From assembly GCA_054600435.1 (NCBI GenBank), contig BAAIJX010000010.1, forward strand, positions 1 to 64,000: 64,000 bases of DNA, read 5' to 3'. The position numbers and the translations under genes are program-made. The notes beneath the pieces are model-generated. The model ran no database searches and was not told where the DNA came from. It was given only the letters and a program-made list of their open reading frames with translations. Positions 7,636-10,600 of the stretch are shown here, piece by piece. Source of the DNA: Neophaeotheca triangularis. Lineage: Eukaryota. Position 1 is the first letter of the stretch; the number at the start of each line of letters is the position of its first letter.

Positions 7636-10600
7636 TTAACTTTGAAGAGGTAAACTTGCGAAAGCGTGAGGTTTAGGTGGACTGTTTAAACATCATTCTA
7701 AGCTAGTGTAAGCTCTGTTTAAAAGAGTTTGTAGGAAATCAGTATAAAACTGAGGTGTTAATCATGGATATCTAGATACACTTTTACCTTCAACTAATTG
7801 CACGTAAGTTATGTATAAAAATAATCAAGTTGCAACAACAGAAATAATAGATCCAAAACTACTTACCATGTTTCAACCTGCAAAAGCATCAGGATAATCA
7901 CTTATTCTTCTAGGCATTCCTTGTAATCCTAAGAAATGTTGAGGAAAGAAAGTTACATTCACTCCTACAAATAACACTCAGAAATGTACTTTACCTAACA
8001 TTATGTTGTAATTTAAACCTAGTATTTTTGGTATTCAGAAGTATCATGCACTAAACAGTGCAAACACAGCACCCATACTCAGAACGTAGTGGAAATGAGC
8101 AACTACATAGTACGTGTCATGGAATGCTATATCTAAAGATGCGTTTGCTAAAACCACACCTGATAATCCTCCTATAGTAAACATAAATACGAAACCTAAA
8201 GCAAACAACATTGATGGTGTTAAGTGTAAAGATCCTCCGTAACATGTTGCTAATCATGAGAATATTTTAATTCCTGTTGGTACAGCTATTATTAATGTAG
8301 CAGCTGTGAAGTATGCTCTTGTATCCACGTCTAAACCAACACTGTACATGTGATGGCTTCAAACAACAAAACCTAACACTCCAATAGACATCATAGCGTA
8401 AACCATACCTAAGTATCCAAACACGCTTTTGTTTGAACTAGCTGATATAGTTGTACTTATAATACCAAATCCTGGTATTATTAAGATATAAACTTCTGGA
8501 TGCAAATATATATTAATTTATATTTTTCTTTTTTTTTTTTATTTTTTAAAGATGACAGGTATATTTCCTGAAGTTTTAATATTTTTAACTTCTTGTTTAG
8601 CTTCAACTAAATCATTACTTAATTTATTAACAATCTCCAAAACCTGCTTCTTTTTCTCCCCATTAGAAAGACTCGGATTATCCATAATACGCTCAATATT
8701 TATATACTTTATAGTAGTAGCACGTTTAATGTCATCTGATGAGTAACTAACATTAGAATCCAGTGTGTTACTACTAGTATCTCTAACAAGGCTATCTGGG
8801 TTGTATGATGTACTAGGAAGTTTATTTCCCCCTCCAGGATTAGGATTGCTACTTCCTCCAGGATTAGAACTGCTACCCTCTCCGCCTGGCCCACCATCGC
8901 CACCAATGTATACCAATGATTCTAAGATACTATTAAAATCAATAAACGCGACTACTATAAAGAGAGATATAAATGTTATGATGAAAGCATAGGTTAAAAC
9001 TCTATGTTTGGTTATAAAATAAATTAAATCTCATCAACAAATTTGAAGGGCAAAAAATATTATGCTTGAAAAAAAAAATACATTGCTAGATATTATATAT
9101 ATATATGGACTATATCATCATCTTTTTACTTAGAATTTCATTTATTATTAAATTTAGTCCAAGCTTTACAGAGTTCAGTGCCTTCTGAACAATTATAAGC
9201 TTTGAGCTTAACAAGATTATAATATTCATTAGTTAAATGTAAGCGGTTACCTTTAATAGATTTGGGGCGGTGTTTTTTGAAATATTCTAAAATAGTTGTA
9301 ATGTCCTTTTCTGATTGAATACTTCACTTATAATAGCCATTTTGTGCTGTGTCAAAATAAATATTACCACCAAAATAATTCATGAAATGCACTACGTCTA
9401 CCTGTAACTTATTAGTTACAGATATGGTTAACTGAGGATAGTTGTTTTTAAAGTAATAACCTATAGTACCATCAGCATCGAAAAACCCGGCAAACCATGC
9501 ATGGTTTTCGTGTAAAACATCGCAAGGCTTAATTGGTATATTCAATATACTACACACATTATGTAATTGTGTCAATCTACTTGTATGTCTTATGTAACCA
9601 TTTATACGATTTACTAAATTTACCATTCCTGGCTTATTGTGTAAACGTCAACGCAATGCTTGAATACCTGCCCTAGATTTAATAGAACCGCCTAATTTGT
9701 TTTGAATAATACGTAATAAACGTTCATCTGCTAAACTTACAGTAATCTCGCAACTAGTATATTTTTTCTTACTAACTTGCAAACTACCATCACCATCAAT
9801 AATACCAGCTAACCACTGGTTGAAGTAAATTTCTTCTGAAGTAAAAGATGTTGCGCGTGTAGTCTCTGAGGTTCCTACTAAATTAGAAGAGTTTCTTCTA
9901 CCGTTGGTTACCTGCTGATTGCATTTGTGATTAGTCGGAGTTTTGACCACAATGGCTAGCAGTAATGCTAGACTTATATCATTAGTATCCGAATAAAATA
10001 AATGTTTCCAGCATATAGCGCAATTCATAATTAGGCTTACACCTAAAAAGGGCCATTGACCGAAAAACCAGAATAAGTGTTGGTATAATATAGGATCTCC
10101 TCCACCTGCAACTTCAAAGAACGAAGTATTAAAGTTTCTGTCTGTTAATACCATTGTAATCCCACCTGCTAAAACAGGAAGAGATAGTAGTAATAACACA
10201 GCAGTAACTACTACTGCTCATCCAAATAAAGCAAGTTTGTGTAATCTTATTCCAGGACTTCTCATATTCAATATAGTTGTTATGAAATTCATAGCACCTA
10301 ACAGGGAACTTATTCCAGATAAGTGTAAGGCAAAAATAGCTAAGTCTACACTAGGTCCACTGTGACTTTGTATTCCTGATAAAGGTGGGTATAAAGTTCA
10401 TCCTGTTCCGGCACCATTTTCTATTGTTGCGGCAAATAAGAATAAAATTAAACTTGGAGGTAATAATCAAAAACTTATATTATTTAGTCTAGGAAATGCC
10501 ATGTCTGGACCACCTACTAGTAAAGGTAATAGGAAATTACCAAATCCTCCTATCATTGCAGGCATAACCATAAAAAATATCATTAAAATGGCGTGTGCAG

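Follow-up and report, generated by a model that had tools for sequence, protein, structure and literature searches.

The cox1 intron and its second open reading frame

The DNA analysed here (the window) comprises the first 64,000 nucleotides (nt) of contig BAAIJX010000010.1 of Neophaeotheca triangularis (assembly GCA_054600435.1). Its mitochondrial part carries a cox1 gene with a single interruption, and the sequence itself gives the exon junction as FFG|HPEV. The interruption is a group I intron of 1556 nt (8503–10058, minus strand, as are all features of cox1 and its intron given below), with the 5′ splice site after U10059 and the terminal G at 8503. Both boundaries carry the splice-site signature of such an intron (...GGT|CAATGG at 10059/10058 and ...TTTG|CATCC at 8503/8502). 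The intron holds two open reading frames (ORFs). The first, at 9126–10058, is a LAGLIDADG homing-endonuclease ORF (PF00961, E 7.9e-19), into which the exon 1 frame continues via the ribozyme core and which ends with a TAA stop codon at 9128–9126. The second, here called ORF2, lies at 8539–9129, in the 3′ tail of the intron. Our analysis indicates that ORF2 is probably a genuine protein-coding cargo gene, belonging to an undescribed family that resides in the 3′ tail of one homing intron.

Elements of the catalytic core flank the LAGLIDADG ORF. Element R, with the P7 5′ strand GACTA, is located at 9856–9868 and pairs with element S, the P7 3′ strand GATATAGTCC, at 9107–9116. The P8 5′ strand, CATCTTTTAC (9841–9850), is complementary to 9129–9119, and the LAGLIDADG domain, with its two motifs at 9812–9786 and 9494–9468 as read from the sequence, is therefore located in the P8 loop. 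The P8 3′ strand, GTAAAAAGATG (9119–9129), takes in the LAGLIDADG stop codon together with the initial codons of ORF2. Comparison was made with seven related loci from Joint Genome Institute (JGI) metagenomes, L001–L007. P7 reads GACTA/TAGTC in the window and GGCCATA/TATGGTCC in L003 and L007, a compensatory change of one pair from U-A to C-G (two sequence types compared), and the P8 strands of the related loci differ in sequence with pairing retained. The initial annotation of this DNA had placed ORF2 past the catalytic core, in the P9 region, and the placement holds: ORF2 follows the P7 3′ strand, P7 is backed by the compensatory change, and the 604 nt from S to the terminal G are nearly all taken by ORF2.

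ORF2 is a stop-to-stop frame of 196 codons plus stop under translation table 4, as had been annotated. Table 4 fits this genome, because a tRNA with anticodon UCA, reading TGA as Trp, is present (11541–11612, minus strand; found by ARAGORN, which labels it SeC) and TGA codons occur within cox1. ORF2 itself contains four TGA codons, all in its first 33 codons, and has a G+C content (GC) of 0.36/0.37/0.20 by codon position. Among 2000 dinucleotide shuffles of the 626-nt tail, the longest frame had a mean of 66 codons and a maximum of 148, with none of the 2000 reaching 150.

An AlphaFold2 model built with the family alignment (mean predicted local distance difference test score, pLDDT, 76.8) places helices at residues 8–41, 43–75, 131–150, and 156–187, with disorder from ~76 to ~130, and thereby bears out the annotated sequence of two N-terminal helices, linker, and helical C-terminal part, the last being modelled as a hairpin. 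Codons 1–75 (8905–9129) encode the hydrophobic N-terminus with the first two predicted helices, where the Kyte–Doolittle mean over 19 residues reaches a maximum of 2.62, and overlap P8′, P7′, and the 5′ strand of a closing helix discussed below; the first ~8 codons (VKRWWYSP) are the P8 and P7 3′ strands read as codons. Codons 76–113 (8791–8904) encode a Gly/Pro/Ser/Asn linker with pLDDT below 50 and hold a 13-nt repeat, CCTCCAGGATTAG, at 8831 and 8855, with local GC up to 0.55. Codons 114–196 (8542–8790) encode a conserved head, consisting of a sequence motif followed by the helical hairpin of residues 131–150 and 156–187. The ORF2 protein is predicted to be membrane-anchored. Past the ORF2 stop codon, the intron 3′ tail (8503–8538) runs for 36 nt, its last letter being the terminal G.

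An undescribed protein family with a conserved C-terminal head

A word-indexed search with ORF2 identified a protein of 98% identity and one relative of like build at 49% identity. When 1.84 billion cluster representatives were searched with a profile, 37 matched at E <= 1e-3, two of them rows of the query itself, and 22 matched at E <= 1e-10. In an alignment of 32 sequences, the hydrophobic N-terminus varies, the Gly/Pro/Ser/Asn linker differs in length, and the C-terminal head of ~85 residues, in which a Ser/Asn-rich motif precedes a helical hairpin, is conserved. Specifically, the motif is L-P-[RKQH]-[DSE]-x-S-x-N-[ST]-L-x-S-x-[VT]-S-Y-x-x-x-D-[LI], with two helices after it and the ending ...LK-x-x-G-x-[IV]-P; the window copy reads L-x-R-D-x-S-x-N-T-L-x-S-x-V-S-Y-S-x-D-I. 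Residue S125 is invariant across the 32 sequences, S128 and N144 are nearly so, and all three are present in the window copy. A strongly hydrophobic 19-residue segment is located ahead of the motif in 22 of the 30 members that are at least 150 residues long. ORF2 is single-copy in the window, where a tblastn search with family proteins gave matches at 8554–8820 for seven members, namely its own P0001 and six others (E 6e-20 to 8e-7).

Names were looked up for 22 clusters; three have one, in each case "hypothetical protein", and one of the three comes from the mitochondrion of Pseudocercospora mori. The P. mori protein YP_009469552.1 (P0048), an example of the hypothetical or non-conserved ORFs in Dothideomycete mitogenomes, shares a 90% cluster with family member P0016. 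It likewise has a hydrophobic N-terminus, a Ser/Gly/Pro linker, and the conserved head, and has been annotated only, never described. The mitogenome paper on Pseudocercospora fijiensis lists, in the part that treats them, unnamed ORFs without analysis (PMC7999263). A full-text literature search found no paper describing the ORF2 family. The family is undescribed so far, and its profile is usable for annotation.

The searches for relatives elsewhere were negative, with 0 of 32 candidate stretches in viral contigs and 0 of 9 in prokaryote genomes proving to be relatives, and a megablast search of the intron against PLSDB plasmids gave no match. A search for longer, fused forms of the family found none, which is weak evidence by the tool's own statement. 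The Stemphylium lycopersici orf185 has 185 residues, like family member P0008, but is free-standing and was dropped as a candidate.

Some family members have additional segments. P0012 begins with a nad1 segment (PF00146, E 1.1e-12), and P0024 (with P0049) begins with a diverged cox1-like segment whose match is weak (E 3e-4); these proteins may be ORFs of chimeric origin that incorporate duplicated parts of genes. P0036, P0050, and P0051, from contigs of 77–96 kb, represent a weak family member (E 8.8e-5) that has no hydrophobic N-terminus and carries a Gly/Thr/Ala-rich C-terminal extension, which suggests DNA that is GC-richer and possibly nuclear.

A fixed address between element S and the HPEV exon

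All seven related loci have the ORF2 relative at the same place. In particular, the relative sits 0 to ~60 nt past the S element (GATATGGTCC or ATATAGTCC), and its stop codon lies 11–90 nt ahead of the 3′ splice site and the HPEV exon. The homologues whose context the initial annotation had proposed to check, as intronic or free-standing, are thus intronic in seven of seven loci. An upstream LAGLIDADG ORF, or its 3′ end, is present in five of the seven; L004 has none, and L005 is too short to judge.

The position of the frame, opening one base off register right at the LAGLIDADG stop codon, raises the possibility that no separate protein is made and that the frame is either translated, by frameshifting, as an extension of the LAGLIDADG protein or held open by P9 RNA structure. 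The frame relation between ORF2 and the LAGLIDADG ORF varies: it is −1 for the window and for L003, whereas L006 and L007 have +1, and there the ORF2 frame is closed for 40–58 nt past the LAGLIDADG stop codon. Because stops lie between the two frames in L003, L006, and L007, a frameshift fusion is ruled out in these three loci. An RNA structure that could hold the frame open is provided by a long-range closing helix, in which the segment after S pairs with the intron 3′ end. Equally stable pairings occurred in 0 of 300 shuffles for L002, 1 of 300 for L003, and 13 of 300 for the window, but in 217 of 300 for L004. In the best duplex of the window, a run of ten T pairs with an A run past the ORF2 stop codon. 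The closing helix in some loci fits an ORF inside a P9-type loop, but takes in only the ends and not the conserved head, and the substitution pattern described below is that of coding sequence. An origin of the frame without a separate protein is the least probable of the explanations we weighed, and ORF2 as a protein-coding gene remains the preferred one.

Several of these loci differ from the window in intron content. In L004 (395–760), a group I core and an S element are present, but P8 is only ~130 nt long and there is no LAGLIDADG ORF; the second ORF is retained. In L006 (580–1764) and L007 (1739–2815), cox1 is far more intron-rich than in the window, with extra LAGLIDADG introns just ahead of WFFG and right behind HPEV that leave exons of few codons.

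Selection on the head and rapid change of ORF2

Codon-model tests (GY+F1X4, code 4) reveal a marked difference between the parts of ORF2. For the head, omega (dN/dS) is 0.12, with twice the log-likelihood difference (2dlnL) from omega = 1 being 109.9 (likelihood-ratio test p about 1e-25; 6 sequences, 73 ungapped codons). For the N-terminus and linker, omega is 0.44 and 2dlnL 16.7 (5 sequences, 86 codons). Pairwise Nei–Gojobori estimates are 0.33–0.34 for the head and 0.74–0.86 for the rest, and pairwise differences by codon position number 466/274/571. Over the N-terminal part, the ORF2 frame is free of stops in each of five loci, where the other two frames have 8–13 and 2–7, and the chance of its staying open is 0.003–0.015 per locus. 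By these measures the head appears to be under strong purifying selection and the N-terminus and linker under weak selection. The initial annotation had proposed a real passenger gene, which a conserved family under purifying selection supports. It had also counted a dN/dS near 1 as evidence against such a gene; at the family level the ratio is far below 1, as the values for head and remainder indicate, and only for the few changes within the species, described below, does that doubt stand.

ORF2 nevertheless changes quickly relative to its surroundings. L003 and L007, compared in 60-nt segments, are 78–97% identical over 4750–5646 (core and LAGLIDADG ORF), 75% identical at 4690–4749, 70% in the segment spanning S, and 23–62% past it; at the amino-acid level, identity is 85% for the LAGLIDADG protein (omega 0.12–0.17) and 39% for ORF2. 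For L004 and L005, identity is 72% in ORF2 versus 91% downstream, and for L005 and L007, 68% versus 88.5%. L002 and L003 are identical at 195 of 198 positions just upstream of ORF2 and at 442 of 561 within it, with a proportion of synonymous differences (pS) of 0.30. From these alignments, ORF2 is seen to be the fastest-changing part of the intron, much faster than the adjoining LAGLIDADG gene.

Such an island of divergence would be explained if ORF2 were a conflict module, with old divergent alleles or with cassettes swapped between similar introns. The three sets of comparisons above argue for this explanation, and the contrast between L002 and L003 hints at exchange of the module or at a chimeric contig, because synonymous sites differ too. 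However, the excess consists in large part of nonsynonymous changes and is consistent with a weaker constraint (omega of 0.44, against 0.12–0.17 in the LAGLIDADG ORF), uncertain alignment of the linker inflates the divergence, chimeras can occur among short metagenome contigs such as L002 (1076 nt), and neither a partner gene nor an immunity function is visible. Weaker constraint accounts for much of the excess divergence of ORF2, and we consider a conflict module unlikely. A fuller version of the idea, in which the P9 cargo is a hypervariable conflict or recognition module whose alleles are far older than the intron backbone, or exchanged as cassettes, and whose head, tethered to the membrane, would skew the fate of the carrier mitochondrial DNA or RNA, is more doubtful still.

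Structure and function searches

ORF2 and the 32 family members were compared with Pfam, and none matched the endonuclease families (LAGLIDADG PF00961, PF03161, and PF14528, GIY-YIG, or NUMOD) at E <= 0.1. ORF2 itself gave no match to any Pfam family, and the 32 members showed no likeness to known maturases in Pfam either. Searches of six members found no NCBIfam family and one PHROGs row, a family of unknown function (E 0.0074). A profile search of PDB sequences gave a best E of 0.044. At the level of fold, Foldseek gave no PDB match at E <= 1e-3, VIA-align against 48,161 chains gave a best Z of 6.6 with generic helical hairpins only, and an ESM Atlas search with family member P0007 gave no usable match.

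These results bear on the view that ORF2 is a degenerate second homing-endonuclease gene, of GIY-YIG or LAGLIDADG type, or the DNA-binding tail of one. Introns with two endonuclease genes are known, and the P9 region is a usual site for such genes, which speaks for a remnant here. The family members, however, match no endonuclease or NUMOD family, no PDB sequence match lies below E 0.04, the model has two helical hairpins without the strands of LAGLIDADG or GIY-YIG folds, and the conserved motif is without a catalytic-type His, Cys, or acidic pair. We regard an endonuclease remnant as highly improbable. The initial annotation had called the frame a non-endonuclease ORF and had named a clear match to a degenerate endonuclease fragment as the result that would speak against it; the Pfam, NCBIfam, PDB, and fold searches gave no such match, with the single PHROGs row as noted.

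Start codon, transcripts, and the state of the window copy

The reading of ORF2 as a protein-coding cargo gene has to be set against a number of observations that count against it. The first concerns the start codon. The sole in-frame ATG of ORF2 is codon 149 (8685), so that the annotated absence of an in-frame ATG stands for everything upstream of this codon and not for the frame as a whole. An ATG at 9083–9081 lies upstream of the T10 run (9069–9078) and out of frame, and would enter the ORF2 frame given one extra T in the run. The contigs of runs X3, X13, and X9, compared as Logan contigs, all show T10 without insertion or deletion, and an assembly error at T10 is therefore unlikely. The annotated details of this region (the T10 run, the ATG one T out of frame, the 13-nt repeat, and the 36 nt to the terminal G) are all present, and the proposed check of the T10 length came out in favour of the sequence as assembled. 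The window is not alone in this respect, an upstream ATG being absent or late in three of the five intact loci; L003 and L002 are also without an early ATG.

A second group of observations concerns change and breakage. The window and an X13 contig (8554–10115) differ at six positions, all of them in ORF2 and five of them nonsynonymous with one synonymous, and show no difference in 986 nt of core and LAGLIDADG ORF. Two of the seven related loci have ORF2 frameshifted, namely L001, which is identical to L003 over 3617 nt save for a 7-nt insertion that breaks ORF2, and L004, whose frameshift lies in the linker. The initial annotation had named frameshifts in close relatives as grounds for doubt, and they are present in these two loci, the other five being intact.

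The remaining points against the reading are of a general kind. The hydrophobic N-terminus is easily encoded by T-rich DNA and is absent from some members, for example P0014. The sequence and fold searches together gave no match pointing to a function of ORF2. The selection tests cover only five or six DNA sequences, and kappa under the null model was taken from a four-value grid. A contig of 1342 nt from the X3 RNA library is identical to 8554–9895, with a depth of 11.8 as against 9.5 and 17.5 for identical exon contigs; because this depth is about the same as that of the exon contigs, the contig shows neither transcription nor splicing state, and it could be DNA or unspliced precursor.

Taken together, the observations on start codon and change allow a further explanation, namely that the family is real and the window copy is in disuse, having lost its start codon and drifting towards a pseudogene in the way of endonuclease genes after intron fixation. 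The position of the first in-frame ATG at codon 149, with the out-of-frame ATG at 9083 and the T10 length confirmed, speaks for disuse, as do the excess of nonsynonymous changes relative to X13, further amino-acid variants among near-identical cluster members, and the broken ORF2 in two of the other loci. Against it, the frame is unbroken in every variant seen of the window copy, and the copy retains all conserved motif residues; L003 and L002, without an early ATG, still show selection on the head; and six changes are too few to tell omega = 1 from omega = 0.4. We judge disuse of the window copy to be unlikely, though the foremost of the alternatives to a cargo gene in use.

Host gene and genomic setting

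The Rfam model Intron_gpI (RF00028) matches the intron at 9754–10068, from P1 to the 5′ strand of P8, over model positions 1–253 with a score of 53.9 bits (E 1.9e-12; gathering score 50); a filtered gathering-score scan of the whole window did not list this match. The intron was also considered as a twintron, and this was rejected, a single group I core being found in 8400–10200 at E <= 10. A further contig from the X3 RNA library joins 9845 to 9126 via 17 other letters, the two end points of the join falling within the two P8 strands. This join is a weak hint of an intron version without the LAGLIDADG gene, the shorter side being 20 letters.

The open frame with cox1 exon 1 occupies 10059–10925 and ends ...HLFWFFG, with GGT at 10061–10059; exon 2 (HPEVYILI...), as read from the sequence, occupies 7636–8502. 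The first ~12 kb of the window is AT-rich mitochondrial DNA of fungal type, with GC of 0.25–0.32, and contains nad2, cox1, and a tRNA cluster on the minus strand. The mitochondrial part stops at 12013–12135, just past trnD, in runs of ~50 T and ~27 C, and the remainder, up to the window end, is GC-rich (0.52–0.59) and nuclear-looking. The junction at 12013–12135 appears to be either an assembly join or mitochondrial DNA inserted into the nuclear genome. At 1299–3230 (minus strand) there is a free-standing open frame of 643 codons, rich in Lys and Asn, between frames at 179–928 and 3879–4691. Judged by eye, the 643-codon frame looks like a fungal mitochondrial gene of rps3 type, and the two frames beside it are taken for nad6 and atp6.

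A model for ORF2 and comparison with known systems

The family to which ORF2 belongs is, on the sequences compared, kept by purifying selection yet fast-evolving, and is broken in some lineages and dispensable there. On the reading of ORF2 as a cargo gene, the protein would be made from intron-containing RNA, either unspliced precursor or excised intron. Because an early ATG is missing, translation would begin at a non-ATG codon or by re-initiation past the exon-fused LAGLIDADG frame, which ends 0 to ~60 nt upstream. The N-terminal helical hairpin would insert into the inner membrane, and the flexible linker would tether the conserved head on the matrix side. Our best guess is a membrane-tethered, matrix-facing cargo protein linked to the intron's own life cycle. 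As the gene is dispensable in some lineages yet selectively kept in most, its role may lie in the persistence or expression of the intron (its splicing, the handling of its RNA, or its transmission) and not in respiration; we propose this role tentatively and at clearly less than even chances.

Papers on fungal mitochondrial genomes commonly list intron-encoded ORFs that have no assigned function, without follow-up. The ORF2 family has a fixed address in one homing intron, a head under strong purifying selection, and a rate of change far above that of the adjoining endonuclease gene. It thereby provides a definite example on which to study how a mobile intron might benefit from carrying a further gene that is not a nuclease. 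Should this gene serve the intron, a third component would have to be added, in this lineage, to the usual "ribozyme plus endonuclease" view of group I introns. If the doubtful conflict module were real, the intron would be a two-gene selfish element, with an endonuclease for invasion and a second gene for persistence.

Three known systems provide comparisons. The first is rps3, an essential host gene housed in a group I intron of fungal mitochondrial rnl. Like ORF2, it is a non-endonuclease protein gene inherited with a group I intron; unlike rps3, which is essential and of known function, ORF2 is fast-evolving and broken in two of the seven related loci. The second is the group of double-ORF group I introns with LAGLIDADG and GIY-YIG genes, which resemble the window intron in having two coding modules in peripheral loops; the second module of the window intron differs in matching no endonuclease family. 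The third is the yeast cox1 intron aI4-alpha (I-SceII), a group I intron that occupies the corresponding site of cox1 (...WFFG / HPEVY) and is related to the bI4 maturase intron. Like the window intron, aI4-alpha has a LAGLIDADG ORF in frame with the upstream exon, and it is not known to have a second gene in its 3′ tail. In the window intron, by contrast, the ~600 nt past P7′ are almost wholly a second, unrelated ORF.

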